A DNA stretch of 64,000 nucleotides, from contig JBEWZL010000276.1 of assembly GCA_045837725.1 (NCBI GenBank), positions 124,001 to 188,000 on the forward strand, in the 5' to 3' direction. A program made the translations under genes and the position numbers. The notes below the pieces were generated by a model, which saw only the letters and a list, made by a program, of their open reading frames with translations, searched no databases and had not been told where the DNA came from. Source of the stretch: Vermamoeba vermiformis. Lineage: Eukaryota. Position 1 is the first letter of the stretch. Each line of letters begins with the position of its first letter. Positions 24,991 to 56,443 of this stretch are shown piece after piece.

Positions 24991-26895
24991 TCATTCAATC
25001 AATAAATGAGTGAACTCTAGCAGTGCTTCTTCAACGTTTAGGCGCTCCGTCCACTCTCGAACAATCTGTGCATGGTTTTAGTGTTTAATGCATCCATAAC
25101 GACTCACCATTTTGTTGATAATATCAGTTACTTCAGTCGTAGATTGACGCCATTTGTTCGAGTAGTACTCGAGAACTTTGCCAGCACTGAACACATCCGC
25201 AACAAATGTTTTGCGATAGTCTGGCGAAACGAAATCTTTCTGCCCAAACAAGTAGAAGCGATCACTGCTCCAGTCTTGCTTGATGAACTGAACGCAGTCA
25301 TAGTCGATCAGCTGATGGAATTGTATTAGTATTAGCTACCTTTTAACTCAACTTCAAAAATACTTACAATGAGATTATCCTCATCGTCCCACATGATATT
25401 TGATGGAGCAATGTCACCATGAATCAGTCCATACGAGTGAAGTGTCTTCACTGCTGTCAGAAGTTCCACTGCTATTCTGATCACGTTCTTGTTTCTTGGT
25501 TTGCGATGATATCGAGGCATTGTCATCACGACTCCTGTGCACTCGTTGCATCGAAACATCTCGAATGAGAGCAAGGTTGGGAAGTGTTTCTTGCCACTCA
25601 TCATTTGTGTCACGAAGAACTCGTGTGGAATCAGCACTGTCAGATCATACGGACTACTTCCATTCCTGGCTTCGTTGGGGTTCATGAATGGAAGGCCAGT
25701 GAGCATCTTGCCGCATACTTTTCGTCCTTCAAGTGTGCCGAACAACACTCGCGGAACTTTTTTCTTCCTTTTAAGGCGATAAGAATTCATCGAGGCTTGT
25801 CTCCACTTCACTCCTGATGAGTTCTTAAAAATGTCGGTGAGCTTTCGTTGTTTTGTGTCACTCAGCAGTGAGTACGAATGTGCGTCTACTCTTTTCGAGA
25901 GACTGATTTCGCTGTAGCAATCCAGCAAAGCTCTTGTCAAAATTAAAGTGAGTGGTCAGTTCAATGCGCATGGCTCACACGTACTCGTAGTCAAAAGTGT
26001 TTGGTATTTCAGGAATGTCGTACACTCCTGTCTGCAGTGCTTTGATTGCATTGCTCGCTGACAGTCGCATTGATGGCTCGGGGTTTGTCTTTCGTTAAAA
26101 GTGTGAGCGAAAAACGTGTTGGATCTCGAACATAACGTACCAACACCTCCACAAGTCTCTTTAATTTTGTATTATTTGATCTATATTGCTTCGTCCATTT
26201 TTTTATTATTCGCCCAGCGCGTACCATGTCGTAGAGGGGCTGGCGTCGGTGGCCGTCCTCAGTCCATACGCCGCCATAAACGGCGATGTCCGCGTGAAAG
26301 AAGCACGAGTTCCATGAAGCAATCTAGTAATAAATAATTAGATTAAGAAAAGGAACTAAATTAATAATATTCACCTTGATTTCACCGTTGTTCCATTCAA
26401 TGGTTGAATCGTCAAGCTGCGAGTGAACAGCGCCAATTTTATGAAGAATTTCGAGCACTTGAAGAAGTTGAAGAGCCATATCAGTGACGCTCATGTGTTT
26501 GGGAGGCTCTTTTGAGTATTTTTTCAACTCAAAGTAAAAACCGCGAGAGTACGCGCGTTTCAGTTCGGCAAATCCGATCAGTTCTGGAACACCAAAAACT
26601 CCTTGCATCTCCAATAAAAAATATAATTCCACCTTTCTTAATTCTAAAATTGAAAAGGATGTAAGAGATAATAAATCTCGTAGTTTTAATAAGTTTTCGG
26701 CGGATCGAACTTACTGCGCCATTCAAAATCCTTTTCGGTTGGTTTAGGTGGCTTTTTAAACAACCACTCGTTATATTTTCCATTTTTCATGCCTTCTTTA
26801 ATTCGTACTTCGGCTTGTATAAAACTAACGCCGTAAAACTTGGCACTTCGAGGCAAATAAGCCAAATTAAGCTGTTCATAATTTGCTTTATGCAT
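24991..26895 (-). CDS. Tandem kinase-fold protein: N-terminal pseudokinase + C-terminal atypical protein kinase
   Basis: Domain 1 LEILHKIGAVHSQLDD (no catalytic D); domain 2 LHSYGLIHGDIAPSNIM..LIDYD..ADVFSAG; GT-AG introns (~26089-26139, ~25933-25984, ~25318-25367, ~25066-25107) join the ORFs in frame. Confidence 0.7.
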
Positions 26896-27296: not shown

Positions 27297-30200
27297 ATGA
27301 AATATTATAAACGTAAGTTAACAGTTAATTATTAAGTGCTGTTCTAACTGGTCTGTAGTCCCGGTCGCGTTAATTATTTTTCTGGCTTTGACTTGTCAGC
27401 TCCTCACGGAAGGTAAATATTAGAAAATAGTATTAAAATATTAAAGCATATTATAGGATGCTTTGTCGACCAGTTTTTGTTACCGCACAACGCGATCTTG
27501 CCCACCATGGCAGTTGTTGGTGAAAATATTTTATTTGCCGGTGGATACATTGATAACCAACAGACGCCCACAAATATAATAGATATTTACAACCCAACTA
27601 CGAATAGATGGACCGTACATACAATGTTCAAAGCCCGAGAAGGAATGACAGCTGCAGTGGTCGGATCAACCTTGCTTCTTGCTGGCGGATGGGAAAAATC
27701 TTCCTGGAACGACAATCAACTAGTCAGATCAAGTTTAGTAGAGATAATTGACTTTCAAAACAACATTTCGTGGATGGCACATCTGAATTCCACCCGTCAA
27801 ATTTCAGCTGTTGCTGCTGGAGGAAAAGTCTTATTTTACGACAAAGCGTCACAAATTACAACAATAGATATATTTGATTTAGCGACGAATACGTCAGAAG
27901 TTGTGCAACGAGGATTTTACTGGACCGCATCTGCAGTTGGCAACGACATTCATTTCTTTACAAATTCAGAAGTAGATATTTATCATCCATCAAATAACAC
28001 CTGGACCAGCGAATCCCTCGGAATAGACATTTTAGGAGATATAATTGACTCCTTTGTAATCAAAGGTGACATTTACTTGATCACCGCGCGGAGCATATTT
28101 ATACGAAGATACGGAACGACCAGATGGCAGCTAATCAGCTTAGGCTTCGGCCATATTAGCTACCGTCTCGTCCACTATGACGTGCTATATATGATGGTTG
28201 GCCCTAGTCGCACCAAGATCAACACCGTGTTCACTTTGGACGGCCTAACGGGCAAACAACTTTCATGGGACTACGAGCCATACAACTTTGGCATTGAAGG
28301 CAGTGTTATCGCACATCAAGATAAGCTCTATTTCGTTGGTTGGTCTGCTAATGCTATTCAACGAGTGTTCCCACAAGTGCTCGTGTACGATGCCATTGAC
28401 ACGCGTCATCGATTAGTCGCATTGCCGAAGGACGACTATCAACTTCAACAAATGCACGAGCACAGAGGAAAGCTCTTTCTTGTCAACCGTGAAGCAGTGT
28501 CACCATCAGCCTTCGTCTACGACCTGTTGCTTGACAGCTGGCACTCGGTCGACTTTGATGACCCGAGAAGCGGCGTTATGATCACTTCTTCTGGCAACCA
28601 AGTCGTGTTCTACGGAGGAACATACGGCCCGTACAACGCATCCAAGTCGGTCCATGTCTACAACACCGACACAGATCTTTGGGCCCACTACAAAACCAGC
28701 GTGTCGGGTAAATTCGCCGTCGTGCGCAATGGTTGGCTCATTTTCTATGGCAACATTTACGGAGAACCAACACCGCACGTGGACGTATTTAACATACAAT
28801 CTGAGACCTGGACAGCACACTCGTTAACTAATTCAGCGTCCGACTACTTCACGGTGATATTCGACACTAAAGTAGCGCTATTGGCAAAAGATGTCATCAC
28901 GAGCATTGACGTTTTTGACACGTCAACTCAACTATGGACCGAGTTCTACCTTCAAACACCGCGCTCTGATTTCACGCACATATCAATCAACGGCATGATT
29001 TATATAGCCTGTGGCATCACTCTGGATCCAATGGCCTTCACAAACTCGCTCGAAGCGTACGACTTGAAGTCACTGCAATTCGTTTTCGAGCGAAATCTCT
29101 CTGACGCCCGTGCCAAGCCCGTGGCTGCCGTGTCATTTCCGTACGTGGTATTCGCTTGTGGGTCTCGTAATGGATTCCCAGTGTCTGCCATTGACGTGTA
29201 CAACATGGAAGATGACACGTTGCGACAAACGACTTTCAGACGTCCAGAACTCATTGGATCCGATTTTGGCATTGCATCTGTTGGCGACACAATGTACATT
29301 AGATACAACAACTACTTATGGATGCTTCGGCTGCGCACTCTCGAGCTGACACAACCTGTCGCTACGCCGTTCATGGCTGGCGGACGAAATTTCGCTATTG
29401 GCAACAACCTCGTCTTCTACGGCCAATCGGATTTTCTGGAAGTGTTTTATTTCTGGGAAACTACGACCAACGAGCACTTTCAAATGGCCACACCGTACCT
29501 CAGCGAGTACACGCAGTCCACATTAGTATGGAAGAACTTTTTGGTCATTTATTTGGGCGATCTCGTAATCATCGAACTTTCAACTGTCTGGACAGGCCTC
29601 ACAGACCGCGATTTGTTCATTGGTGAGACGACGACACTGGCTGTGGACGCTGTTGGCAATGGTCTCGAGTACTTTTGGTACCACGAGAACACCAAGCTCG
29701 AGGAAGTGCGTCCGTTCTTGTTTTTGAACACGAGCTCGCCTGATTTCAGAGAGGGCCGTTACTGGTTGGCGATCAAGGACCACTGTCGCTCGTACATGGA
29801 GTTGTACTCAAGAGTTGAACTGCTTGGTCCACCGACTTTCGAGTCACAATTAGACAATCGTACTGTGCTTTGTAACGCCACAGCACTTTTGTTCCAGCTC
29901 AATACGGACGGAAGAAACGTCAGCTTGGATTGGACGATCAACAACGAACGAAGAAGTAGCGTTGTCAACTCGACTTTTGTCCTGGATCTGCGCCCGCTCA
30001 CATGCGACTCAACCAATCAACTCTGTGCCACAGCAACAAACCCGTCAGGCTCTGTCAGCACGTGCAGTAACATTCATCTGGCTAGCTTAGGATCTATATT
30101 TAACGGTCCAAGAATGTCACCTGAACTGCAACTTCGATCGGTCGGCTCGTACGTCACACTTCGAGTTGACATTTTGGATGACAGGTGCAAAAATCACACG

Positions 30201-31839
30201 TGGTTCGTTGACTCTGAAGAGCTAGGCTCATTCGAGGCTTCATTCAGCGAGCTTGAAGTCCAGTTGGAGCGAAACGTAGAAAGTCAGAGATACATTGTGA
30301 CAACGACATGCGATGGCTCGAATTTGATGTCCGCGCCACTTATCATCACTTTGTCACCTTTACCAGCGTGGGGTCTAGCCGCCATTGTGATTCTCGGCGC
30401 TGGTATTATTGGCGGTGCAATTGCCGCTGCAGTCATTGTTCGACGAAGATTCAAGCAAGGCAAAAAGCAAGAAGTCGAGTTGAAGACAATGCTCAACAAG
30501 GCTAAGCAAGAGGTCCTGACCAAGAACGGCACCACGATTATCAGCACAACGAGTTGGGAATGGTCGCCTGATGACGAGCACATGTTCTGTCCTATCGACA
30601 AGTTGCCTGTCACCATCGACTTGTCAAACCTCGGCTTCAATCTGAGTGACCCTATTGAAGTCAATATTTGGACTCAAGGCACCATTGTCATTTCGTCCAA
30701 GAAGGCCTCAAAGAGTGCACTGCCGTTCTCGTCATTATTACACCAAAGTCTCATTGATGACGAGATTGATATCTACGTGCCGAAGTCGCCGAAGTACGAG
30801 CTAGAAGTCAATCCTCTGTCATTCAGGGTCTCTGACGGGTCAGTCACAACTCTCAACGTCTCAGCGATGATGAAAATGACGACTAAGGCGAAGATTCCGC
30901 TCGTTATTGTGATGGAAAAGAAGAAAATTTATTCATCGATTGACTTGGTCTTGCGAAGCAAACCATCGCCTTGGATCGATCTTGACAAGGTCAAACTGAC
31001 TGGTGAAGTACTTGGCCAGGGAGGGTAAGTTGACGTACATTGCATTTTACTTCCAAGTTTTTAATCGTGTTTGTAGATTTGGTGTAGTTAAGCGAGGTGT
31101 CTACAAAGGCCAAGATGTCGCTGTCAAATTGCTCTTGACGCAAGATTTGATCGACGAGACGAAGAAAGAATTTGAGCGAGAAGTGTCACTTATGAAGAAC
31201 TTGCATCACCCGAATATCATTCAATTCATCGGTGCTTCTAACGTCGAAGGCAAGCTCGCCTTGGTCACGGAGTTTGCGCCGCTTGGAAGTCTTGGAACGC
31301 TGTTGGAACGAGAGTTCATCCCGTACAACATCAAGCTTGTGATCGTGCTCGAGATTGCTCGTGCTATCAAGTTCCTTCATTCGAACAATATCATCCATAG
31401 AGACGTCAAACCACAGAACATCCTCGTGTTTTCGCTCGAGCCCAAAGCCACTGTTCACGTCAAACTGACCGACTTTGGCACGTCAAAGTTCGTGCCTGAT
31501 ACGTCCTCTGTTAACATGACAAAGTACACTGGCACTGCAAAGTACATGGCTCCCGAGACCTTCGGTGTAGATCCACGATTCACGCTCAGCGCAGACATTT
31601 ACAGCTTTGGCTTGTTAGTGTGGGAAGTCATCACCGGCCAGGATGCGTTCTCGGAGAAACAGTACATGTGGCAATCAAAAATCGAAGAATTCGTATTGTC
31701 TGGAAAGAGAATGCCTATCCCTGAAGAAATGGACCCTCGACTAGCCTCAATTATCGAACAATGTTGGGGCCAAGATCCGGCAAAGCGCCCGTCCATGACT
31801 CACGTAATTCAACAACTTTCAGCACTTGTGTACGGATAA
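27297..31839 (+). CDS. Receptor kinase 1: signal peptide, Kelch-like beta-propeller(s), Ig-like domains, TM, juxtamembrane beta domain, TKL kinase
   Basis: Signal peptide over two small exons (27297-27312, 27359-27412); FAGG..IDIYNP..W Kelch motifs; LEYFWY/GRYW and LDWT..C Ig-like domains; TM AWGLAAIVILGAGIIGGAIAAAVIV-RRR; intron 31025-31076 in GQGG|FG; HRDVKPQN, DFG, YMAPE. Confidence 0.9.
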
Positions 31840-32059: not shown

Positions 32060-32711
32060 CTAGAACAAAGCAAGAACCGCAAGCAAGGAGGCCAAAGAAC
32101 CGATGACGATGGAGCTAGCATCAGACTTCTTGCAGAAGGCGGTAAGGTAGTCAGTGCCGATGGTGGTGCAAGTTGGACCAGCAGCAGTGGACTCAGCCTT
32201 CAAGTCGGTGCAGTTTGTACCGGTCTTGACAATAATCTCGCCCTTGCTGTTGCAAGCACCAAGACTGAAGCTGACATCACCAACCGCGTAGCACTTGTCG
32301 GTGTCTCTCACTAAACAAACTCGATCAGCAGATTCGTTTAAAAATGAAATTTATTTCCTTACCAGCCATCAAAACGTTGGAATTTTGGCACTTGTTGTCG
32401 GAGTAGCCAATAATACCGGTGTATTGGTCCTTAACAACGAGAGTCTGGGCGGCTAAGCAAGCATCCTTAACCCAGAAGTTACCTGCAGAAGTGCAAGTAG
32501 CAAGAGTAGAAGAGCAGTTGGACTATTAAAAAACCAAGGGTAGTAATATAGCGAGTGCTAGATTCAGCTGTAGACTTACTTGAACTTGGATGTAACCACC
32601 AGAAACGTTAGAATCCGAGCACTTATCATCGCCGTAGAAAGTAACGACCCAGAAGTCTGCAGAAACTGCAGCGACGGCGGCGAGGAGCAAGATGGCAAGT
32701 TTAACGTTCAT
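32060..32711 (-). CDS. Small secreted cysteine-rich protein with probable GPI-anchor signal
   Basis: Signal peptide MNVKLAILLLAAVAAVSA; 3 exons; ~9 Cys; C-terminal SDASS + hydrophobic tail IVIGSLASLLAVLALF. Confidence 0.75.
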
Positions 32712-33117
32712 TATTGTTGCGGTGTACGTTAGAACGATAAAAACTGTTGTAGCATTCATTTTTTCGTTTTTATTGTGGCCTCTCACGTGACTTTACGCAA
32801 TTCCGATTGGCTAATAACAAAAATAACGTCCGTTCCAAACAAACGATAGGCCTTACGATTGTAGCTCTAAGTAGGACCCAAGGCTCAAAGAAAAATATCG
32901 GCAGCTTTTTTAAAATGGCTTGACTCAAACATCTTAATGCTGTTAATTTCGAGTAAATAAAGATAGAGTGTTCAGACCGTCGGCAATTTGTAGCTTTCAA
33001 AATGTTTAGTACAATTTGTGGATGCGGGATCTTTTTCCGCACTCTAGAAGCTGTTCATGAACGAACAGCTACGTTGTGTATTATTTAATATTTTAGGGTT
33101 GTTAAGCGAGTAACACC

Positions 33118-36100
33118 TTATTTAATATTTGATAGTCGTTGTACAACAACATTAATTGAAGGACGTTGTTTTGGTTCGTGTTGCCAGCACTCTTCAATCA
33201 GTGCCACCAACGATGCATCAATCTCGTGCCCATGTGGGAATGGAAGGCGATTGCCTGATTTGACATGTTGTTCGATGTCTGAGTCCCATTTGAACTCTTT
33301 GAATGGCACTTGTTCGAACAACACTGACCACATCAGCACTGCAAAACTGTAAACATCTGCACTCTTGTCAATGCGTGGATTGCGTCCGAGTGCTTCTGGT
33401 GCCATGAATGCAATGGTGCCAACGTTCTTTGTGATCGTTGTGGGGTCATCAGCAATGAACCTTGATGTGCCAAAGTCAGTCAGTTTCACATGCACCGCTG
33501 CTCTTGTCTCGAGTGAGAACACGAGAATGTTTTGAGGCTTGATGTCGCGATGAATAATGCCGTTCGAGTGAAGGAACTGCAATGCTTTGGCAGTCTCCAA
33601 CAAGCACATCACTTTGAACTGAACTGACAGCGACTGTTTCTCCATCACACTTGCAAGACTGCCAAGAGGTGCGTACTCAATCACAATCGCCAAACTCTCT
33701 TTGACATTCGATGCACCAACGAACTGAACAATGTTGGGATGTCTCAAGCTCTTCATCAGTGTCACTTCTCGCTCGAACTCGATCTTCATATCATCAGTCA
33801 GATATTGACTCAGAAGCTTCTTCACGGCCACTTCTTGACCTCGATACACTCCTCGCACAACTGAACCAAATCTGTGATGAAGTGTCAGTCCGTGTCAAAG
33901 TGTCAAAAGTGTCATCACGTGTCATCACGTGTCACAACTTACCCTCCACCTCCAAGGAACTCTCCACTCATCTCAATCTCTTCAAGATCGATCCACGTTG
34001 ACATCTTACTGTCAAGTTTGAATTCGATGGCTGAGTAGATCTTTTGTTGTTCGAGCACAACGATCAGAACGACTTTGCATCTCGTTGTCATTCTCATTCG
34101 CACTGACACTGTCACTGAGTGAGATTCACCTCCTTCAACGTACAATGTCTCGGGCTCAACAGTCACTTCGTACTTGGGTGATTGAGGTGCGTAAATGTCA
34201 ATCTTCGTTCCTGAGATGAGCTTCTCTGTCAAGATAGTCGACTTCTTGGTCTTCTTTGGTGTTCGCGATGATATCTGAAGCTCTTTGTTGAAGTTCATCT
34301 CGATATCAAGTGGTTCTCCTTTCTCAACAAACTTCAGTTGTGAGGTATCGATATTGACAGGGAGACTGTCAAGTGACTTGTATGAGAAGTCTTCGCTTGG
34401 TTTCCATTGCCACGTTGTCTTGTTGATGATCGGCATCGATTCTTTCATCAACGAGTCAGTCTTTGCATTGGAGAGGAGTGCTGAGAGTTCAACTTCTTTG
34501 TCTTGGCTTTGATTCAGTTTCTTGCGCTGCAGCACAACAACGACAATGAACACTGCAACACCTAAGAACACACCAATGACCAACAACACAACACCGTAAA
34601 CTGGAAGTGGTGACACCTGCTCGAAGCTGAATCTGCGTGACTCGATGAGACTGTTGCCACATGTTGCAACTACGTAGTATTGATACATGGCCATTGAAGG
34701 TGACAACTCGACTGAGAATGTGCTGCTTCGTGTTTCTGCTTGTGTCACATTGACTCCGTTAACATACCACACATGACTCGTGCAGTCTCGTTCCAGGATA
34801 TCCACACTCAGCTCCACGGTTGTATTGGAGAACCATGTTGGTGGAGTTGTTGATGGAAGTGGTCCTCTGATCACTGAGTCGAGTTCGAGCATCTTCACTC
34901 TTGCACACGATTGTGTCTGGCCCGATGGATTGGATGCGTACGCACATACCAACGCGCGAGTGTTGCATGTAATGTGACTGGTTGACACATGAAGTGTGGC
35001 CTCGCTGGCATCGGTAACTGGGTGCCCATCAATGGTCCACGTGTACTCCACAGCCACGCCATGAGCCTCGATTGGAAGCTCCTCCACACGATCACACAAG
35101 GCTACAGAGTCTTTCAATGGAACACTGAACATTGGCACATCGTGAACTGTCAGTCTCGCTTGGTGAACAATGTGAAAGTTGCAATGATCGAGCATGTCAA
35201 CACGATACATTCCATCTGAGTGCATTGTCACATTGTCGAGGATCAGTGTGGGATTGTCATCTTGAATGGCTTGACCTTCGTGCGTCCATTGATATCGCAG
35301 TGGAGGACCTGCAGTGGTTACTGTGAAGTTGGTTGATTGGCCAATGAATAGCTCCTCGCCGTTGAACCCTTCGAGCAGCGTCGCTAATGGCATCACATAG
35401 GGTCTCGTCAGCTGTGCCTCTCCAAGATTAACCATCACATAGTTTGACACCAAGTCGCTGGCGGCTCTGCCTGTTATAGTCCCTCTCGTTGTAATGTACG
35501 TCCATTCTCCCGTCGAAACTTCGTAGATTGTGATGGATGTGCCTGATGAGCCGGGCGGTGTCATGTGCGCAACAAGCTTCGATCCAACAGCTGTCATCCT
35601 TTGCATATTAAACACGGGGAAAGGCATTGACGTGATCGCTCCAGTTTCGACTTCAACAGCTTCGATAGTCAGTGAGCGTCCGACAAATACTTTGTTGCCA
35701 ATTGTGAGTAGTACTGGCGCCGTTGAAGACAAGGTGCGCGGCAACAGGATGGTCTTCCATGTGCGGTTTGTGGTGTCAAACACGTCCAACGGCTGAGTTT
35801 GTGTCGTTACCATGCCTGTAAAGACGACGTACTTGCCCAATACAACCATTTGAATCGCATTTGCAGGCGTTGAGAGCGTCCATCTCGTCGTCGTATTGCG
35901 CTGAACGTCGATCACGTAGAAAGCGGTGACTTGGTTTGCATAAGTGTCCGTCACAAAGACAAAATTGTGTGCTACGAACAGTGCGCCAGTGATTGATTGT
36001 TCCGGGAGCGAAATGTCCTGAATAGTGGTGCTTGTCATTACGTCGAATAGAATCACGCCGTGCTGTGTTGTGGCAGCTAAAACAGTGTCATTGTAGGACG

Positions 36101-37688
36101 TGAACGTGATTGCTCCGAGCTGAAGCACTTCCAACTTGTGCGTGTTGACATTGAGCAAATGAACATTGCTGTACGTGGATGCTCGATCGAGGGCTCTTAA
36201 GGTTATGAAATCTCCAAAACCAACTACGTCGTTCAAAGCATAAATGCTCGGCAACTCCAGTCGTTCCATGCTGTGCTCGTTAAAGTCGTACAAAAAGACC
36301 AAGAACCCCTGATCTGAACGCGTAACATAAGCTAATTTGTCTCGTGTCATAGCGCGCAGTGATAAGCGAGATTCTCTGGGGTACGGATGTACTGTTGTCA
36401 CTCTCGTGTTCAAGTTGTACGTGGTTACATTTGGCTCGAGAAAGTAGAATAATGTGTCTCTTTCTGTGAATGAAACAGTTGTTCTAACATCCAGCTCGAG
36501 TCGTTGAAACGTGTACCGTAGGTCCAACATGTGAAATCTCTCTTGGCTCCCGGGCAAAACTTCGTTAAACACTACCACACCATTTGCATTGACCGCTGAA
36601 AAAAATGTATTCACATTGTGAGGCAGCACGTGATGTATCTCGAATGGCACGAACGGATTGGTGATTACGTAGCCCGTGCTGAAGCGATAAATGTTTCGAT
36701 TGATAACTACTGCCGCCCGGCCTAGGTTCATGCTTTGTTGAAATGTGTGCAGAATGCCTGTCTCTGGAGCCATTGCTGAATATACATCGACGTGTCTTAG
36801 TCCAAGCATGTATATGTAGCCATCAGAATAAACAGCAGTAATGTATGTCGCGGTAAATGTGACGTTTGAGCTGCTCAATGTCTCCAAATCAATAATTTCC
36901 ATAACTTTTCCAAACGTCGTTATAAGGAATGCGTGAGTTCCGTTTGTAACTCCCAAGTTATACGGGACCTGTCCTGCTGGCAATGGTTCAAACTCGAGTG
37001 TTGTTAAATCCATTATTAGGGTGAACGCTGGAGCATTTTGAAGGTGTCCGAATACAACTGCCTTTGACTCTCCTATGACGACGCTGCTTAGTCGATATGG
37101 TTCGGGAAGTTGTAAGCTCGTCAAACTGTTGTCATTCAGATCGTAGATCTCCAGCACTTGAACATCGCCATTTTCGTCACGGCCGCCAAAGAAAATAATT
37201 ATTAAGCCATTTGAGTCAGCTGAAATACGCCTTCGTGGTTGAGTGAGGTTGAAATAGGTCCATTCACGGGTGGAGGTGTCAAACACAGCCACTTCCGAAG
37301 AGGGTTTGTTGTCGCCATCTATTCCGCCAGCGAAGAATACTTTATCTCCTGATGCAACCAGTGTTATCTCTCTTCTTTGAATTGGTAATGACAGGGGCAA
37401 AAAGCAACCTAAAAATTACCAGATGAGCGAATCCAGCATAAAGCATTTTAAAAAAATGGACAGATACAGTAGCTTGGATATAGATGCTTTAAAACATTAA
37501 ATAATTTATCATCCGGCTTCTAGTTAGTCCGCATCTGGGTCAGACAAAACGTTTTTTTTTTGATGACCACTTACTCTTCGAAAGGCACAAAAATAATACA
37601 AATGCAATGATAGTCGTCAGTATTTTTTCTAAAATTATTAATTAAAACTCGGAATGACGATTATTGCAACCGATTATTTACCAGACAT
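33118..37688 (-). CDS. Receptor kinase 2 (Kelch/Ig/TM/TKL)
   Basis: Signal MSEKILTTIIAFVLFLCLSKS from two small exons; large exon 37408-33943; YQW..D.G.Y Ig motif; TM VYGVVLLVIGVFLGVAVFIVVVVL; intron 33872-33942 in G-loop; HRDIKPQN, DFG, FMAPE. Confidence 0.9.
33872..33942 (-). repeat. Intronic short tandem GTGTCA-core repeat (6 cores)
   Basis: gtgtcagtcc gtgtcaaa gtgtcaaaa gtgtcatcac gtgtcatcac gtgtcac; paralogous intron 38634-38694 is 10 nt shorter. Confidence 0.8.
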
Positions 37689-37879
37689 TCGTGCTTCTTA
37701 TTTCTATACCATTTGACATGTAAATAATAGTCAATTGTTGTTTGATGCATTCGCCAAACAATGGGATTGAAAATGGTTTGCGCCTGATGATTTTGACGTT
37801 TGACATTCCGACCCTGGTTTACTTGGTTGGGAGGAGCCAATTGTAACTAACGCAAACGGACGTCGAGCCGATTGAGTCA

Positions 37880-40800
37880 TTATTTAATATTTGATAGTCG
37901 TTGTACAATAACATTAATTGAAGGACGTTGTTTTGGTTCGTGTTGCCAACAATCTTCAATCAGTTTCACCAAAGATGGATCGATATCGTGCCCATGAGGG
38001 AATGGAAGTCGATTGCCTGATTTGACATGTTGTTCGATGTCTGAGTCCCATTTGAACTCTTTGAACGGCACTTGTTCGAACAACACTGACCACATCAGCA
38101 CTGCAAAACTGTAAACATCTGCACTCTTGTCAATGCGTGGATTGCGACCGAGTGCTTCTGGTGCCATGAATGCAATTGTGCCAACGTTCTTTGTGATCGT
38201 TGTGGGGTCGTCAGCGATGAACCTTGATGTGCCAAAGTCAGTCAGTTTCACATGCACTGCTGCTCTTGTCTCGAGTGAGAACACGAGAATGTTTTGAGGC
38301 TTGATGTCGCGATGAATCACTCCGTTCGAATGAAGGAACTGCAATGCTTTGGCAGTCTCCAACAAGCACATCACTTTGAACTGCACTGATAGCGACTGCT
38401 TCTCCATCACACTCGCAAGACTGCCAAGAGGTGCGTACTCGATCACAATCGCCAAACTCTCTGTGATATTCGATGCACCAACGAACTGAACAATGTTGGG
38501 ATGTCGCAAGCTCTTCATCAGTGTCACTTCTCGTTCGAACTCGATCTTCATATCATCGGTCAGATATTGACTCAGAAGCTTCTTCACGGCCACTTCTTGA
38601 CCTCGATACACTCCTCGCACAACTGAACCGAATCTGTGGTGAAGTGTAAGTTCGTGTCAAAGTGTCAAAGATGTCATCGCGTGTCACAACTTACCCTCCA
38701 CCTCCAAGGAACTCTCCACTCATCTCAATCTCTTCAAGATCGATCCACGTCGACATCTTACTGTCAAGTTTGAATTCGATGGCTGAATAGATCTTGTGTT
38801 GTTCGAGAACAACGATCAGAACGACTTTGCATCTCGTTGTCATTCTCATTCGCACTGACACTGTCACTGAGTGAGATTCGCCTCCTTCGAGGTACAATGT
38901 CTCGGGCTCAACAGTCACTTCGTACTTGGGTGATTGAGGTGCATAAATGTCAATCTTTGTTCCTGAGATGAGCTTCTCTGTCAAGATTGTCGATTTCTTG
39001 GTCTTCTTTGGTGTTCGCGATGATATCTGAAGCTCTTTGTTGAAGTTCATCTCAATCTCGAGTGGCTCTCCTTTCTCAACGAACTTCAGTTGTGAGGTAT
39101 CGATATTGACAGGGAGACTGTCAAGTGACTTGTATGAGAAGTCTTCGCTTGGTTTCCATTGCCACGTTGTCTTGTTGATGATCGGCATCGATTCTTTCAT
39201 CAACGAGTCAGTCTTTGCATTGGAGAGGAGTGCTGAGAGTTCAACTTCTTTGTCTTGACTTCGGTTCAGTTTCTTGCGTTGCAGCACGACGACGACAATG
39301 AACACTGCAACACCCAAGAACACACCAATGACCAACAACACAACACCGTAAACTGGAAGTGGTGACACTTGTTCGAAACTGAATCTGCGTGACTCGATGA
39401 GACTGTTTCCGCATGTTGCAACAACGTAGTATTGATACATGGCCATTGAAGGTGACAACTCGACTGAGAATGTGCTGCTTCGTGTTTCTGCTTGTGTCAC
39501 ATTGACTCCGTTAACAAACCACACGTGACTCGTGCAGGTTTGTTCCAGGATATCCACACTCAGCTCCACGGTTGTATTGGAGAACCATGTTGGTGGAGTT
39601 GTTGATGGAAGTGGTCCTCTGATCACTGAGTCGAGTTCGAGCATCTTCACCCTTGCACACGATTGTGTCTGGCCTGATGGATTGGATGCGTACGCACACA
39701 CCAACGCGCGAGTGTTACACGGCATGTGACTGGTTGATATGCTTAAAGTGGGAGAGGAGTTGGTATCAACTGTCACTCCGTCAATGGTCCACGTGTACTC
39801 TACAGCCACGCCATTGGCTTCAATCGGAAGCTCCTCCACACGATCACACAATACCACAGAGTCTTTCAATGGGACACTGAACATTGGCACATCGTGAACT
39901 GTCAGTCTCGCTTGGTGAACAATGTGAAAGTTGCAATGATCGAGCATGTCAACACGATACATTCCATCTGAGTGCATTGTCACATTGTCGAGGATCAGTG
40001 CGGGATTGCCATCTTGAATGGCTTGCCCTTCATGGGTCCATTGATATCGTAGTGGAGGACCTGCAGTGGTCACTGTGAGGTTGGTTGATTGGCCAATGAA
40101 TAGCTCCTTGCCGTTGAACCCTTCGAGCAAGGTCGATAACGGCATTATGTAAGGTGTCGTGCGTTCTACGTTGACAAAAAGATAGTTCGAAACTGTGCCA
40201 ATCAACGAGTCAATAGATGGTAACGTAAGGAAGGTCCAGTCTCCTGTTGTAACTTCGTAGATTGTGACGGTGACGATGCCTACGCCAGGCGGATGTGATT
40301 GTACAATAAGCTTCGAGCCCAAAGTGGTCATTGTCGCTAAGTCGGAGACTGGGAAAGGAAGTGTTGTGATGGCGCCTGTCTTGACATCGACTGCATCGAT
40401 TGTAATTGATCGGCCAATGAATAGTTTGTCGCCTATTGCAGCTAGTATCACTCTGTTTGAGTACAATGTGCGAGGCAGCACAACAGATCTCCACGTGAGG
40501 TGCGTCGTGTCGAACAACTCCACGGGTTGAGTTTGCGTCAAGCTCAGTCCTGTAAAGGCTGCGTAGTTGCCAACCACTGCCATTTGTAGTCTTGACATAG
40601 GTGCTGCGAATTGGTGTGTTCTGATGTTGCTACTCCGAACATCAATCGTGTACGCCAAGTCTCCGTCCATTCGCGTTGCAAACAGAACGTCATTAGCCGC
40701 ATGAATCGAAGTCCATTGCCCATTAATGGGAAACTCGCGCAACGCTCTTCTTTCCACAACATCGTATAGAACAACGCTGGATGAAGCTAGCACGGCCAAA

Positions 40801-42398
40801 ATATTGTCCTTGTAAAGGGTGGCGTGTATTGCGGCAAGAGGCACTGTTGTTAAGCTGTTTTCATTGATGTCGAACAAATGAATGGTAAGCGTGGCCAGGC
40901 CCTGTGTCACGCTCATAAAGGCCACTAAATCTCCAAAAGCTACGGCAGCTTGGACTGTGTTAATGGGCAAGTCTATGGTGTCCACGCTCTGACTATCAAA
41001 GTCGTATAAAAAAACTGAAACTTGTCCAATGAACTGCGATACATAGGCAAGCTTGTGATCCATTAGAACGTAAATAGGATACTGGCTACGAAATCTGTCT
41101 CCAGCTGCTGGATGCACTGTCAAACTTCTCGAGTTGAAGTCGTACGTGGTGATGCTTGGCTCTTGAAAGAAGAATATAACGTCGCGCGATATGAAAGTGG
41201 CACGTGTCGAGAGTGTCAGAAGCGGCGTAAGTGTATAGCGTGTGTTGAACACGGAAAATTGTCCGTTGTCAAGTCTCGCGAATATCATTCCATTTGCAGC
41301 AGCTGACATGTCAAAATGGGTATTCTGCGGCAAGTTATGCTGTATTTCCAATTCCAAGAACGGATCAATGATGGTGTAACCTGAGCCAATCCGATAAATC
41401 TTCTGATTTATAACGACTGTCGCTGTCGCACTGCGCGCTCTACTTTGTCGATACATGTAGGTGATGGTATTGCCGGTTGTCGTTGAATAAAGAATGGCTC
41501 GCCTTGGTCCAAGAAAATAAACAAATCCATCCGAATAAATGACTTGAAGTGTTGCAGCCACGTTCATGACAACCACATCCGATATTGTCAGGGTCTCCAA
41601 GTCAACAATATAGATCATATCGCCAGTTCTTGTAATTAAAAATGCGTGAGTTTCGTTGGTCGCTCCTACATAATATGGATTTATGGATCTTGTTTCTAGT
41701 GGTGTAAACTCCAACGTTGTTAAATCAAGTATTAACGGTGGTACTATTGGTGTAGTTTCGTGAGCATTTCCAAATATGATCGCCTTGGACTGTCCCATAA
41801 TGACTCTATTATATCGATATTGTTCAGGGATTAGAGTGCTTGTCAAGCTGTCACTGTTCAGATCGTAGATCTCAATAACTCTACTATCAACATTAGATTC
41901 GCCTATTCCTCCGACAAATATAATTTTTGAGCCATATGAGTCAGCTGAAATACGCCTTCGTGGTTGAGTGAGGTTGAAGTGGGTCCATTCGTGCGTGGAG
42001 GTGTCAAACACAGCCACCTCAGAAGAGAGTTTGTTGTTGCCATCTATTCCACCAGCGAAGAATACTTTATCTCCTGCTGCGACCAGTGTTATCTCTCTTC
42101 TTTGATTTGGTAATGAAAAGGGTAAAAAGCAACCTAAAAATTACCAGATGAGCCAATCCGATCGCAATAATTAGCAATCGCTGATACAAATTTACTATGC
42201 TTTAAATAATAATTTGCAAAAAACCAGGGTCACAAAATTATCGAATCCGATTTTTTGTTTGGATCTGCTTACCACTCGACAAAGGCAACAATAATAAACA
42301 TGCCACGACGTATATTATTATAGTGTCGCCTAAAATTATATTATAATTAGTAAAACCCAAGCTCCAGCTTAACTTAACGCCGTCACTGTACCTGTCAT
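37880..42398 (-). CDS. Receptor kinase 3 (Kelch/Ig/TM/TKL), tandem paralog of kinase 2
   Basis: Signal MTGDTIIIYVVACLLLLPLSSG from two small exons; same intron positions as kinases 1 and 2; kinase nearly identical to 33118-33858. Confidence 0.9.
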
Positions 42399-42541: not shown

Positions 42542-45500
42542 TTATTTGCTTTCCTCTTTTGGTTTGGCAACGATATTATCATTTGCTGTAGTTGCAGCCT
42601 TTTCGTCATTTTGCGCCAGTTGAGCCAAATTGACGTGCGCCAAAAGATTAGCCGACGTGCTCTGATGGTGATGATAAGCCGCATCGTTCATCGAAGGAAT
42701 AGGTGCTTTGTCAGGGTGCACCGTTTTCAAATGGAAACTGAACGGTCTGTACGAGGCATCATCTTGCGGTCGAGATCTGCATCGAGATTCAGTTAGCAGC
42801 TGCTAATTGCACTTACTTTAGCCCAAGTGACTTACCTCATCAAATCGACGACGGGGATAAGATGTTCCCATCGTTGTTTCTTGGGCACACGACGCTTGAA
42901 GTCCATATTGGGAATCAGATCTGCGAATGGAATAAACTCGAAATCACCTCCGTTGATGCCAATTGCGCCAAACAACTCTTTGCCCGACTTGAAATATTCG
43001 TCCATTTTATCGACGGCGTATTGGGCAAACTCAGCGCCACGAAGGCGGTCCATTGGCGAAGGCGAATAGCCCTAGTTAATGTTAGTACGCACGAGATCTG
43101 TGAATTACACGCACCTGTTGCAAGTGACCAAGGATAGTGTGACGCACGTCAAAGAATCCTTTGCCCTCCTCGGTAAAGATCTTCGACAAGATGTCAGTTG
43201 TGTAAGTCTCGCTCGCCCTCTCGCTGTTAATGACCAAGCTCGTCGTCTTGCACATTTTGAATCTCTTTTTCATGCGGTCGACGTCATCAGCCAATTGTCG
43301 TAGAGTAATGCCGTGTTCAGGAGTGTAACATAACTGTGCACCACCAGCGATGGAGCCACAAATGCCCAAATAGCCGCAGTTGCCACCCATGACTTCCATA
43401 ATGAACACACGAGCACGCGATGCCACTGCACTCAGCTTGACTTTATCGGCACTCTAGTGATAGTGGTTAGCACTGTGTTGATATAAAATGATAAGGCTTA
43501 CTTCGACAATGCAGTTCAACGCTGTGTCAGATCCGATGGACACGTCAGTTCCCGGCACGTTGTTGCTGACAGTAGCAGGAACGCAAATGATGGGAATGTT
43601 GAATTCAGGGTACTTCTCTTTGTTCTTGTGAAGGGCAATGGCTGCAGCATAACCTTCCCAACCACCGATAAGCAGCATTCCCTAGCAAAGTTATTAGCCA
43701 ACCAAGAATGTATATCTTCCGGCTTACCTTTATCTCGTACTGCTTGAAGCACTTGGCAATCTTTTCGAACTCTTCGTCTGTACTTGGAATAGTTCTGTTT
43801 GTACCTAACAAAGAGCCTCCAATGTTTGACCAGCTATTCAAAGAGTTGGAGATCAGATTTAGTGCACGTGCTAACTTTGCAACTTACCCGTTCACGCTGA
43901 GCCATTGAAGCTCTTCAGGCGCGTCACCTCCATCGAGGATATCCTTAATTCCGTTGTAGAGAGCCATAGGTCGGTAACCCTTGTTGATCAGCATTCTCGT
44001 AGCACAACGAACGGCGCTGTTCATGCCGGGCGCAGGAGCTCCAATGTGGGTGATAGCAATTGCAGGTTTCTAAACAATTAGCTCTTTATAGTATAATAAG
44101 AGTGGCTTACCTTGACAGAATCGGGTAAAATGACCGGAGCAGATCGCGTCAAAACAAAAAGCGTCTTCAAAGCGTTGTTAAATACTGGACCTCGTAGCTG
44201 CATAGCCTTCTCGTATTCTCCGTCGCGAATTGCCTGGCCAACAGATTGAGTCTACATAACAAACCGTTAGCTCCATCCGGAAGATCTTTGCCGATCCGCA
44301 AAATAAGTTCAAGCTCCACAGCTGGCAGGCAAAATAGCCCTCGATGGAGGTTAAAATAGAAGGGATAAAAGCAAAAAAGAGAAAGAGCACAACACCTCCG
44401 ATTCCCAGGTAGTCTCCTACCCCAGTACTAAGAAGGCCTGAACAAGCTTAACTTCGCTGATCGGACGGGAAGCGGTGCATTCTTGTTAGTGTGGTCGTGC
44501 CCGAGTGCCAACGCAATTTCAAACGAAGGTCACTACTTGCGACCATTGGACTGCTCTTACCATTTTTACGGCCTCCATCAGGTTGGATCGCACGACCTTG
44601 GATCCGCGAATACCAATCAACGTGTGTTGGAAGCCTGGTTTAGCGTCCAATATGGCTTCTACTGCCTCCATACCCATTTGAGTACTCTACGCGCCTCATT
44701 AATACTTGACCACTATTAAGCCTATTATTACGTACCAACAGTCTGTCGTAGAAACATGGAGTTCCACCGCGCTGGATGTGACCCAAAATTGTGACACGTG
44801 CTTCCATCTTCAAATCTCCTTCAATAACGTCCTTCACTTCATTGGCTGTGATGATCTTTCCTTTCGTGTCGCGTGCTCCTTCAGCAATAATAATGACACT
44901 CATTCGCTTGCCGCGGTCACGGCCCTTCTGAACTGATTTGCACATCTTTTCTTTCCATGTCTCGTCGTTAGGGAACTCGGGCACGAGAACATAATCACTG
45001 CCTGTGGCCAAACAAGCTGCGATAGCCTTAGATCCAGTCAGTCAAACACGCGTACTAACGCATGCATAAAACTACTCACCAAATAACCACAATCGCGGCC
45101 CATAACTTCAACGACGAATGTGCGTTGATGTGATGCAGCAGTAGTCATCAATGAGTCAATGCACTCGATAATTCGATGCAAGGCTGACGCTGCACCGATC
45201 GTCATATCTGTGCCCCACATGTCATTGTCAATTGAGCCAACCATACCAACTACATAGAAATTCTTTTGGTGTTCCTGCAAATATTACGAGCGTCAATTTC
45301 GTTTCGTCAATTACGCTGTGCGGATCGCACCAAGAAATATCGCTTAAAACCACTCATTAATTTTAAACATTAGGGCTCCTTCAGCTCTATGTTTAGTCTG
45401 CTTATTGTATTGTATATTGATACTTACGTAGGAATATTTGGAAATTTTTCCTTCTTTGTACAATTCTTCGACGTACTCGGGCCATTCTCGACTCAAAATA

Positions 45501-53488: not shown

Positions 53489-56443
53489 ATGGAGAAACGT
53501 AAAAGAGATTCGTTGGATTCTGACGGAACCTCCCCAAAAAGATTTAAAAATGGTCCAACCGTTTGGTAAAATTTAAATATTAATCCTCCTTTCTCATAAA
53601 AGTCAGATTTTCAATTTTTATTAGTCAATCCGAAAACGAAGTCTACGCAATGCTCAGATCCAAGAAAGCTTTTGTATTCACTGCTAATGTGGACAGCTTT
53701 ACGTTGCCACAAGACTGTGGTAAGTATTTACATCAATTATTTTGCCTCAATACTGAAATTTTTAGCGACGCTGGAGCATCTGAAGCGCCTGACAAGAGCT
53801 TTGCTCGATGAGGGGAACCAATTGCAACAATTCAACATCATACGTAAGATGAAGGCTCTTATTCATAGTATATTAACCTTGTGTCAGATGGATCAGAAAT
53901 ACTGTCGTACGATCGTGTTGCATCCATACTTCAAAGCCTCAAAAATTGCTCAACTCTCAAATCATTAGTGATATCAAGTATGCACTATTTATACAGGCCT
54001 TCATTGCTAACCAAATAGATGTTGACATAAAGTTTACGGAACTCGTGCCACTATTGAAGAAGAAGACCCTGCGCATACTCGCTGTCACTTCCCCTAGTGC
54101 GTTAATGTTCATTTGCTTACTTACGACTAAAATTAAATACAGGTCGGAGACATACAATAATGAACAACAAAATAAGTGACATCGCGAACGACATTATTGC
54201 ATGCACCAGCTTGAAATCTGTTGACTTCTCTGGTAAGCTCTAATTACTACGAAGCATTTATAAATCCATTATTAGGCAATTTATTTGAATCCCTGGAGGG
54301 CATTGATAAAGTAATCACTCAGCACAAGTATCTTCGCAGTGTGAAGCTTTCGGGATGTGAGTTGGGACAAGAGACCATGGCTGCTATTGCTGCATTTGTC
54401 CAATCAACCAAAACACTAACTACACTCGATCTATCAGGTATGTTAATAGATTTCTGTTGTGTGCTAACTTTGTCAGAAACCAATCTGACCGATGACAACT
54501 TAATGAAACTGGCCCAGTCTTTGGAGAAAAACAAAACTCTAACTTCACTTAATATAAATCAAAGTAAGTTGTTTTTAAGTTATGAGGTTAATAACACTTG
54601 TAGCTACTATTGCTTCCTGCCAAAACAAAAGGCTATGCGGCAATGCAATTGTGAACATGTTACAGTGCAATAACACGCTAACCACATTAAAAATGCGTGA
54701 AATTCCACTTGTTGAACATGAAGTTGCTATTTTGAAAGCGCTGCAGAATTCTGATGTAATTCAGGAATTGGGAATGACAAGCACGTAACAATGATATTTG
54801 TTTTATTAATGCTAATACTGGTTGTAGTTCGAACTAACGGTGGAACTGATCAACTGGGAATAATGCTGCAACATATTACAGCCTTGTCCAAATTAGATGT
54901 TAATTGTAAGTGGTTGAATGGAATGTTTCCTTATTAAGGTTTTTTTCAGTGCCTAATTTAATGAGTTTCAGTCTTGCTAAACTTGCCACTGGAATAACAA
55001 ATAATACCACTCTAAAACATCTTGCATTCAGTAGTAAGTTGAATTACAAACCAATGTTACACAGTAACACATTATAGTACTAACCTTTCAATAGGTAGAT
55101 GTTGGCAGTTTGATTCCAACAAATTGTCTCTTTTAGGGAGTGCCTTTGAGAGCAACAGAACATTGCTTTCAATTGAGCTAGCTATCCCTGATTACAAAAC
55201 TAAGGCCTGTGCAAAGCAAGTCACTATGAGAAACAATGCAATTGTTACATTCGATCGTACATTGATCAAGGCCTTTATAGACAACAAAGACTGGGATGGC
55301 ATGTGGAACTTTGTCAAGCAAAATCTTGCAAATGATTTTTTGTTTGAAGATCTCATAGACAAAAACCATTACAACCTTGATGACTATGAAGAGATTTTAT
55401 CCAAATATTTAAAACAATCAGCAGCTTATCATAAAGAACAGCTATCAAAAAAGAAGCAGTTGGACAAAGATATCTGTGATAATAACAAGACTATTGAAAA
55501 AACTCACACCAAAATTGTGGAAGCTGAGCGAATAATAGAGGAATCTAAGGCCCTGATGAAAGAAGCAAGATCTAAACTGGGGGGGCTTTCTGAAGATCTA
55601 CACAAGGTTGAACAGCACATCAAAGTAGAAAGCTATTCGCAAGAGAGAATGGAAGCAGAGCACAAAAGAGTTAAGGAGCAGACGAAAGGTCTTGCCAAGC
55701 AATTCAAACGCCCTGTAGAGACATGGTCATTGGATGAAGTCATAATCTTTATTCGAGACCTACAATTACACATGCATATTGAAAAGTTCACTGAAAATGA
55801 GATCAAAGGTGATGTGCTTGTGAACCTGACCACACTAGATTTTCACCAGCTGGGCATGGGCTTCAAGGAGATCAAGTCACTGATGAGCTCAATTTTTGAG
55901 TTGAAGCACTTCAAGTCTCTCAGTGATATTCCAGATGGCATTCTCTACTGGACCAACAAACAAGTCCTGAACTGGCTTGAGGTGAACAAGTTTCAACACT
56001 TAGTGAATCAGTTCCAAAATTGCAAAGTACGTAGAGCTTTAGTTGTTGTGATTAACTAATTGCTGAGTTAGATTACGGGAGAGGATTTGGTTGTGCTTGA
56101 TAACTACGATCTGACACATTGGCTCAAGATTGAGACAATTGCAGACAGAACGGCGCTTGAAGCTGCTATCAAGAGGTTGAGAGCAGAGCTTGAATCACTT
56201 GCCAACAATGACACTGCCCAGAAGAAGATACCCAAGCAGTTCTTGTGTCCCATCACACACGAGATTATGAAAGATCCAGTCTCAACTATTGATGGTCACA
56301 CGTATGAACAGGCAGCGATTGAGTCTTGGCTCAAAAAGAAGAGTACCTCTCCGTTGACTAACGAGACACTCGCGAGCAAGCAATTGATCCCCAATCATCA
56401 ATTGAAGAGCTTGATTGCTGAATTCCTCGGCGAAGCTGGCTAA
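53489..56443 (+). CDS. LRR (RNI-like) - coiled coil - SAM - SAM - U-box protein, copy 1
   Basis: N-terminal basic NLS-like motif; LTTLDLS/NKTLTSLNI/NRTLLSI LRRs in short exons; SAMs (WSLDEV..F.ENEIKGDVL, WTNKQVLNWL); U-box FLCPITHEIMKDPVSTIDGHTYEQAAIESWL..SPLTN..LIPN. Confidence 0.88.

Follow-up and report, generated by a model that had tools for sequence, protein, structure and literature searches.

The window analysed here is a stretch of 64,000 nucleotides (nt) of Vermamoeba vermiformis DNA (contig JBEWZL010000276.1, positions 124,001 to 188,000). It contains two adjacent paralogs, the receptor kinase genes g2 and g3, which lie head-to-tail on the minus strand, and a more distant paralog of the same architecture, g1, on the plus strand. 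The subject of this analysis is the sharp alternation of conserved and diverged segments between g2 and g3. Both genes are predicted, from their sequences and from structure models, to encode single-pass receptor kinases that consist of a signal peptide, a double Kelch propeller, an immunoglobulin-like (Ig-like) region, a transmembrane segment, an ASH/MSP-like domain and a tyrosine kinase-like (TKL-like) kinase.

The propeller ectodomain of ~660 residues is encoded by the large exon. The Pfam families Kelch_1/2/4/6 and PF24681 score above threshold on the N-terminal blades of all three proteins (g1, g2 and g3); the later blades are not recognised by Pfam. The AlphaFold2 model of g3 residues 1–664 (predicted local distance difference test, pLDDT, 86.9; predicted template modelling score, pTM, 0.76) is all-beta, with ~63 strands. 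Its best Foldseek matches, with E down to 8e-18 yet with TM-scores of only ~0.3, are tandem double propellers, namely Utp21, IFT-A subunits, Apaf-1, AIP1 and a bacterial sensor; the propeller is therefore a double propeller. The Ig_3 family gives 27.1 bits in g2 and 23.8 bits in g3, both under the cut-off of 30. The Ig-like region is followed by a hydrophobic transmembrane segment and by ~190 cytoplasmic residues. The AlphaFold2 model of the cytoplasmic juxtamembrane part (mean pLDDT 73.9; block means of 76–93 for most of residues 31–170 and of 52 for block 91–100) has a helix and then a beta-sandwich, which weakly resembles the ASH/MSP (PapD-like) domains. Its Foldseek matches include the OCRL ASH domain, the CEP192 PapD-like domain, MSP WR4 and HYDIN (E from 4e-5 to 1e-3, TM-scores of 0.35–0.47), and the domain has no match in Pfam. 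The last exon encodes a protein kinase (Pkinase, E=2e-52; PK_Tyr_Ser-Thr, E=4e-51) with the catalytic motifs VAVKK, HRDIKPQN, DFG and APE intact in both g2 and g3. The closest solved kinases are CTR1 (E=1e-35), TNNI3K and the MLK/DLK kinases, and the kinase appears to be TKL-like, the group being assigned by best matches only.

Comparison of g2 and g3 by blastn of the gene regions and by self-blastn of the whole window yields two conserved blocks, at the positions at which a first-pass annotation of the window had noticed them. The 3' block is 94.0–94.2% identical over 2279–2294 columns (33118–35393/35408 vs 37880–40145/40160), with 121 mismatches and 6 gap openings in the alignment of 2294 columns (94.0%). 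It includes the last propeller strand, the Ig-like region, the transmembrane segment, the ASH/MSP-like domain, intron 2 and the kinase up to the stop codon. The 5' block is 91.4% identical over 244 columns (37192–37434 vs 41916–42159). The ~600 codons between the blocks are heavily diverged, with indels, as that annotation had described; the amino acid identity is 42% over 591 aligned residues, and blastn of the gene regions finds there one weak high-scoring segment pair alone (70% over 314 columns). Identity in sliding windows of 60 columns is 0.87–0.93 in the 5' block, 0.30–0.70 in the middle and 0.87–1.00 in the 3' block, so that the boundary is indeed sharp. In a likelihood scan with three segments, the change points fall at g2 37194 / g3 41919 and at g2 35377 / g3 40129, with mismatch rates of 0.089, 0.436 and 0.055 and a log-likelihood gain of 446 over one segment. 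Three details of the annotation need correction, one of them being the diverged island in the 3' block described below. The 5' block exists, but it is not the beginning of the gene ("first ~60 codons"): it comprises the last ~25 nt of an intron and the first ~70 codons of the large exon. The copies, described as almost identical, are similar to the degree of 94%, not 99%, with a synonymous divergence (dS) of ~0.13–0.17. At the protein level, g2 and g3 are 95% identical in the part from the Ig-like region through the transmembrane segment to the juxtamembrane domain (below, the Ig–juxtamembrane part) and 97% identical in the kinase.

The similarity does not continue into the flanking DNA. In the self-blastn of the window, g2 and g3 have no matches beyond the two blocks, apart from a stretch of the kinase that they share with g1. 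The 3' untranslated regions (UTRs) are unalignable from the first base past the stop, and the stop codon is the exact end of the 3' block. Divergence also marks the exons for the signal peptide and the rest of the 5' introns, the 5' block beginning ~25 nt inside the intron. The 3' tract also contains a diverged island in the second Ig-like module, where the window of codons 801–850 has a nucleotide identity of 0.77, a nonsynonymous divergence (dN) of 0.22 and a dS of 0.51; the ~90-nt island is either a second patch that escaped conversion or a seam between two tracts. The third paralog, g1, has 15–16% amino acid identity to g2 and g3 in the propeller, 33% in the Ig–juxtamembrane part and 55–56% in the kinase, and its nucleotide similarity to them is only 77–78% over 122–131 nt of the kinase. 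All features are listed in Table 1.

Table 1. Predicted genes, conserved tracts and diverged segments of the receptor kinase locus (positions in the window).
Feature	Position	Strand	Comment
Gene g2, receptor kinase 2	33118–37688	-	predicted model, from open reading frames and splice sites
g2 exons	37682–37688 (ATG + 4 nt); 37575–37628; large exon 33943–37408; kinase exon 33118–33871, including stop	-	
g2 introns	37629–37681; 37409–37574 (166 nt); 33872–33942 (71 nt)	-	
Gene g3, receptor kinase 3	37880–42398	-	predicted model, from open reading frames and splice sites
g3 exons	42392–42398; 42273–42329; large exon 38695–42133; kinase exon 37880–38633	-	5' exons predicted from sequence only
g3 introns	42330–42391; 42134–42272; 38634–38694 (61 nt)	-	
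Gene g1, distant paralog	27417–31839	+	same architecture; outside the homogenisation
Homogenised 3' tract, g2 copy	33118–35408	-	94% nucleotide identity to g3 copy
Homogenised 3' tract, g3 copy	37880–40160	-	94% nucleotide identity to g2 copy
Diverged double-propeller segment, g2	35409–37193	-	~600 codons
Diverged double-propeller segment, g3	40161–41918	-	42% amino acid identity to g2
Homogenised 5' tract, g2 copy	37194–37434	-	3' end of intron 1 and first Kelch blade(s)
Homogenised 5' tract, g3 copy	41919–42159	-	counterpart of g2 5' tract
Diverged island in 3' tract, second Ig-like module	g2 ~34975–35063; g3 ~39727–39815	-	~90 nt, sliding identity 0.53–0.72

The discontinuity between conserved and diverged segments is also present at silent sites. 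By NG86, dS is 0.21 and dN is 0.054 in the 67 codons of the first blade(s), with a maximum likelihood (ML) dS of 0.19 and a range of 0.19–0.23 for the 5' tract across estimates. The 589 propeller codons have a dS of 1.5–1.6 and a dN of 0.50, with a proportion of synonymous differences (pS) of 0.66 and a saturated ML estimate of dS (10.5). In the 732 codons of the C-terminal half, dS is 0.17 (ML 0.13) and dN is 0.028. Synonymous divergence is not uniform along the genes: the propeller exceeds the flanks by a factor of ~10 (p=3e-58, Fisher test of the synonymous differences between segments). Four-fold degenerate sites, counted in codons that share their first two bases, differ at 4/31 positions in the first blade(s) and 36/331 in the C-terminal half, and at 73/122 in the propeller (11–13% vs 60%). 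The low dS is not an effect of codon bias or constraint, since codon bias is weak in both parts (effective number of codons 48.1–48.4 and 53.5–53.8; third-position G+C content 0.46–0.51), intron 2 inside the 3' tract is conserved (56 of the 60 aligned positions match, with a further 12 gap columns), and the UTRs and 5' parts are diverged. As silent sites and an intron are conserved together with the coding sequence, the conserved blocks cannot be due to purifying selection at the protein level. These blocks share a younger common ancestor than the propellers.

Halves as similar as these could also be produced in an assembly by collapse or chimerism of a single gene. Repeats of 2.3 kb at 94% identity would favour such errors, and 25 of the 145 aligned contigs of one public run, X1, fit two places. 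An artefact of this kind is nevertheless extremely unlikely: the copies are distinct at the 121 mismatches and 6 gap openings given above, neither gene has a damaged reading frame or splice site, and contigs of the independent public runs X1, X5 and X7 bridge conserved/variable junctions of both genes. The 3' boundary of g2 is bridged by an X1 contig of 2012 nt (35230–37241, 0 differences), which also extends 47 nt past the 5' boundary, and by an X7 contig (35333–35855). The 3' boundary of g3 is bridged by contigs of X5 (39691–40199) and X7 (40085–40777). The junctions are real.

The contigs of run X1 differ in depth. Those at 32706–33177, 35230–37241 and 37399–37939 have 0 differences and a depth of ~138–166; those on g1 (27409–28568 and 30459–31472) have 11–15 differences and a depth of ~240–250. 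For the propellers, the depth in X1 is ~138 on g2 vs ~240–280 on g1 and on g3, where depth is the depth of words and not copy number. The contrast may reflect a haplotype-specific or hemizygous g2 segment. One further X1 contig matches g2 from the kinase side to 34004 and continues with 79 nt of a different yet related coding sequence; this loose end hints at another paralog that shares only the kinase end at a level of at least 95%, and hence at another tract boundary.

Relatives of the three genes were collected by word-index searches and by a HMMER search, in which 19 proteins match the Ig–juxtamembrane part of g3. The alignment contains 23 rows (g1–g3 and 20 database proteins), with identities tabulated by segment; trees were built from the propeller columns of 12 rows and from the Ig–juxtamembrane columns of 11 rows, 11 more distant rows being excluded. 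The EukProt transcripts P0002 and P0005, from Vermamoeba vermiformis itself, are the sole named relatives of the family. The protein P0001, an NCBI record from a contig of 4.6 kb, has a propeller with 96% identity to that of g3. The word-index search with the g3 propeller gave 4 matches, all of them, besides P0001, at most 47% identical. The HMMER search with the same segment gave 3390 matches at E<=0.001 in a 50% representative library; only P0001 and P0003 match from end to end, P0013 and P0016 match in part, and the others match only the first Kelch blades. The g2 propeller has 2 database matches, both 42–43% identical, and the protein collection contains no g2 counterpart of at least 635 residues, shorter fragments having been outside that search. 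A metagenome scan with 597 pattern matches led to one confirmed locus, L001, on a 2662-nt contig (72% over residues 1014–1147), which was too distant and too short to be used.

The two trees are discordant in depth. In the propeller tree, g2, P0005, (g3,P0001) and (P0013,(P0160,P0016)) form an unresolved polytomy, with path lengths of 1.44 between g2 and g3 and 1.37 between g3 and P0005. In the tree of the C-terminal half, g2, g3 and P0001 form a clade with 100/100 support, nested inside P0005, and the corresponding path lengths are 0.052 and 0.43. The ratio of propeller to C-half path length is 1.6–3.5 in 19 of the 21 pairs formed by seven family members; the outliers are 27.7 (g2–g3) and 32.8 (g2–P0001). 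The propeller distance between g2 and g3 is the same as that to other members of the family (1.37–1.62). The whole family thus has propellers that evolve approximately three times as fast as the C-terminal half; the contrast between g2 and g3 is another ten times larger and specific to these physical neighbours. The propellers of g2 and g3 split from each other as long ago as they split from the transcript P0005 and from metagenomic relatives.

The first-pass annotation had explained the pattern by diversifying selection on a ligand-binding propeller and/or by gene conversion of the flanks, and had likened it to immune or allorecognition receptors, a comparison that would be conjecture. Diversifying selection finds no support in the substitution pattern. 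The ratio of dN to dS (omega) in the propeller is 0.33 by NG86, LWL85 and YN00 and 0.08 by ML, with saturated dS, and its maximum among 50-codon windows of the propeller is 0.48. Residues identical between g2 and g3 are equally common in predicted strands (143/334) and elsewhere (102/263; p=0.36), a comparison of strands and loops that serves as a proxy for mapping onto the propeller face, and the differences between g3 and P0001 are distributed in a similar way (13 in strands vs 11 elsewhere, p=1). Positive selection may have acted at individual sites, given that dS is saturated and that two DNA sequences are compared. Between g3 and P0001, there are 28 differences in residues 1–668 and 13 in residues 669–1147, with a path ratio of 1.6, in one comparison at the protein level only.

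These data also bear on a history without any recombination, in which diversifying selection or relaxed constraint would have separated the propellers and purifying selection would have preserved the signalling half. The family-wide excess of propeller over Ig–juxtamembrane change, seen in 19 of the 21 pairs, agrees with it. We nonetheless consider it very improbable: selection on the protein neither lowers dS ten-fold nor conserves an intron, propeller omega is low, a strand/loop bias is absent, g3 and P0001 appear to lack a propeller excess in the one protein comparison, and the g2–g3 ratio is far above those of the family in general. If the DNA that encodes the propeller were locally hypermutable, dS and dN would rise together, which would account for the high values of both and for the indels, but hypermutation has just as little chance of being the cause. 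Under hypermutation, g3 and P0001 would not be expected to differ by 4% in the propeller and 3% in the C-terminal half, and the distance between the g2 and g3 propellers, being equal to that to other family members, is what old divergence predicts.

Gene conversion homogenising the flanks, the second part of the original explanation, is supported by the drop of divergence at silent sites, the co-conserved intron, the weak codon bias and the ~ten-fold outlier in the family ratio. The silent sites and the tree depths show that g2 and g3 are of mosaic ancestry, and in our opinion old propellers were probably retained and the rest of the gene homogenised by recombination or gene conversion. Such a pattern is what gene conversion among tandem paralogs commonly leaves behind and is not proof of an immune-style arms race. 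The process is most likely non-allelic recombination between the tandem copies, that is, interlocus gene conversion and possibly also unequal crossing-over. Only slowly evolving stretches, namely the first blade and the entire signalling half, would have stayed similar enough to recombine; the 5' exons, the UTRs and those propeller blades that evolve fast would have dropped below the identity required, and the tracts would consequently end inside the propeller and at the stop codon. The outcome would be a pair of receptors that differ in the sensor, share nearly the same transmembrane and cytoplasmic module and presumably act in the same pathway. We infer from the sequence pattern that conversion was the mechanism, and likewise its direction and the coupling of two sensors to one signalling module.

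A different order of events could leave a similar trace. In the main rival explanation, the whole gene was duplicated in tandem recently (dS ~0.17), and one copy then received its propeller from a diverged paralog elsewhere. Such a cassette swap would likewise produce the jump at silent sites and the two sharp boundaries within the gene; diverged family members are available as donors (the 19 matches mentioned above), and the X1 contig that leaves g2 at 34004 hints at paralogs that share the kinase end. A recent duplication, however, should leave similar UTRs, 5' exons and introns as well, and the observed similarity reaches no further than the stop codon and, on the 5' side, ~25 nt into the intron before the large exon. 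In addition, no donor was found in the databases, the closest sequences to the g2 propeller being 42–43% identical and those to the g3 propeller, besides P0001, at most 47%, which is weak evidence, as the full genome is not part of these databases. We regard the cassette swap as unlikely, though it is the strongest of the competing explanations.

The protein P0001 provides possible evidence of another exchange. At the 24 sites of the C-terminal half that differ between g2 and g3, P0001 has the g3 state at 16 of the 17 sites in residues 676–805 and the g2 state at all 7 sites in residues 865–1113. The switch is significant in a max-chi-square permutation test (p=5e-5, or 0.005 when the 11-site island is collapsed to one site), and the version of the island in P0001 is that of g3. 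Residues 865–1147 contain zero sites at which g3 and P0001 agree against g2, which is not as simple orthology of g3 and P0001 predicts. The simplest reading of these sites would be a further exchange between g2-type and g3-type sequences after the sources had diverged, either by conversion or by an unequal crossover that created a hybrid gene. The absence of a g2-like protein of at least 635 residues from the collection and the half depth of the g2 segment in X1 fit this reading, as leads only.

Several points weigh against the homogenisation of g2 and g3 by gene conversion or limit it. The nucleotide comparison is between two sequences, the DNA of g2 and that of g3. The flank dS of 0.13–0.21 implies that the last homogenisation was not very recent. 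The phylogenetic argument is one of discordant depth: the propeller topology is a polytomy, and a supported conflicting topology is not among the results. A third paralog may have been the donor of one of the propellers. Among the 23 contig pieces listed (there are 234 further ones), none bridges the 5' boundary of g3 at 41919. At the 7 sites where P0001 is g2-like, the outgroup P0005 has the g2 state at 4 and the g3 state at 1, and part of the g2-like signal could be due to g3-specific substitution and not to exchange. Finally, P0001 may come from another strain, represent the other haplotype or be a hybrid gene.

We speculate that this free-living amoeba might possess a modular system of recognition to which the locus belongs, in which old, deeply diverged double-propeller sensor cassettes are mounted on one actively homogenised signalling chassis, and recombination between neighbours generates hybrid and copy-number-variant alleles among strains. 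This is a long shot. The protein P0001, with the propeller of g3 and a g2-like 3' half, and the half depth of g2 in X1 would be traces of such a system. If it exists, it would provide a repertoire for the recognition of prey, pathogens or kin, similar to the plant clusters of receptor-like kinases and of nucleotide-binding leucine-rich repeat (NLR) proteins, and evolved independently in Amoebozoa.

Similar histories have been described for plant loci. In the Arabidopsis OAK / At5g59670 receptor-like kinase cluster, a 2.7 kb fragment is reported to be identical between neighbours and to end near domain borders, and haplotypes switch within the gene (PMC3136440). The cluster resembles g2/g3 in having tandem receptor-kinase paralogs and a long conversion tract. 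It differs in that conversion in OAK took in the extracellular part and stopped where the kinase begins, whereas in g2/g3 the sensor escapes and the signalling half is homogenised; its ectodomain is malectin-like with leucine-rich repeats, in contrast to the double Kelch propeller in the amoeba, and the g2/g3 tracts are older (94% vs 100% identity). The Arabidopsis NLR locus RPP8 exists as a tandem pair or as a single copy and undergoes crossing-over and intergenic conversion (PMC6771003). RPP8 is similar to g2/g3 in its direct-repeat paralogs and one- and two-copy haplotypes, a possible parallel to P0001 with its g3 propeller and g2-like 3' part. Its product, however, is an intracellular NLR protein and not a receptor kinase, and its balancing selection was demonstrated by population data, while g2/g3 are known from sequence comparison. 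In other gene families, namely the rice Xa21 family and the human RHD/RHCE pair, linked paralogs undergo conversion only in their conserved part, and the other parts stay diverged. Gene conversion was also described for the linked Dlx pair of Capitella (PMC3199776), again limited to the conserved part of the linked paralogs and again in another gene family.

The architecture of the receptor has a bacterial analogue. The Bacteroides hybrid two-component sensor BT4663 (PDB 4a2l), which is the Foldseek match of rank 23 (11% identity, TM-score 0.3), also has a tandem propeller that binds ligands outside the cytoplasm and is linked across the membrane to a kinase. The likeness is an analogy of design only, without a sequence relationship, and the bacterial protein is a histidine kinase, unlike the eukaryotic TKL-like kinase of g2 and g3. 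Among amoebae, the TgrB1/C1 allorecognition proteins of Dictyostelium are polymorphic Ig-fold surface receptors. The TMK family of Entamoeba comprises amoebozoan transmembrane kinases (cited in PMC4053784). Single-pass receptor kinases and Ig-fold surface receptors are thus found in amoebae, and neither of these two groups is described with a Kelch propeller ectodomain in the portions of the literature covered. The words "Kelch" and "propeller" do not occur in the Acanthamoeba genome paper; in the paper on the Vermamoeba CDC-19 genome, "kinase" occurs once and "Kelch" is absent. The literature searches found no amoebozoan receptor kinase described as carrying a Kelch propeller. The combination of a double Kelch propeller, an Ig-like region, a transmembrane segment, an ASH/MSP-like domain and a TKL-like kinase is apparently undescribed in that literature.

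Partial concerted evolution, in which signalling modules are homogenised and sensors escape, would also shape the receptor-kinase genes of a free-living amoeba. It is already well known from plant and animal receptor clusters, and g2/g3 by themselves do not represent a new mechanism. There are two practical consequences for annotation. Trees of the kinase domain will underestimate the age of the paralogs in the g1–g3 family, and the 2.3 kb repeat may cause breaks or collapses in assemblies of short reads. The published draft genome of Vermamoeba vermiformis has a G+C content of 41.7% and is highly fragmented.

In the gene models of g2 and g3, two small exons upstream of the large exon seem to supply the start codon and the signal peptide. 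The first coding exon appears to be a micro-exon of 7 nt, made of the start codon and 4 nt, and is followed by an intron of 53 nt in g2 and of 62 nt in g3; this exon is proposed by likeness to the N-terminus of the transcript P0005. The second intron of the g2 model, at 37409–37574, is backed by a spliced contig of run X7 (joint 37406->37573, CT..AC). In g1, g2 and g3, a phase-2 intron splits the glycine loop of the kinase at the same place. Another spliced X7 contig omits 59 nt at 42776–42836 (CT..AC on the plus strand), which marks an intron in a gene, so far without annotation, that lies on the minus strand directly upstream of g3. RNA reads of run X21 gave no usable expression evidence for the locus: of 15 reads, 11 lie only partly on the stretch and 14 are 95–99% alike to it, mostly in the kinase exons.

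The window is eukaryotic nuclear DNA with spliceosomal introns, and its base composition is ~35–49% G+C per 2 kb. The neighbouring genes encode SAC3/GANP, the cohesin protein SCC3, a SAM-domain protein and a mitochondrial carrier. Upstream of g1, an open reading frame at 25332–25955 on the minus strand has a partial Pkinase match (E=6e-7), at 29.6 bits below the cut-off of 31.7, and may be an exon of a fourth kinase gene nearby. Self-blastn of the window also found two further direct repeats, both 82% identical. One of them (7865–7953 vs 8162–8250, over 89 nt) lies within the open reading frame 7730–8653, and the other connects 56138–56424 and 59294–59581 over 289 nt.

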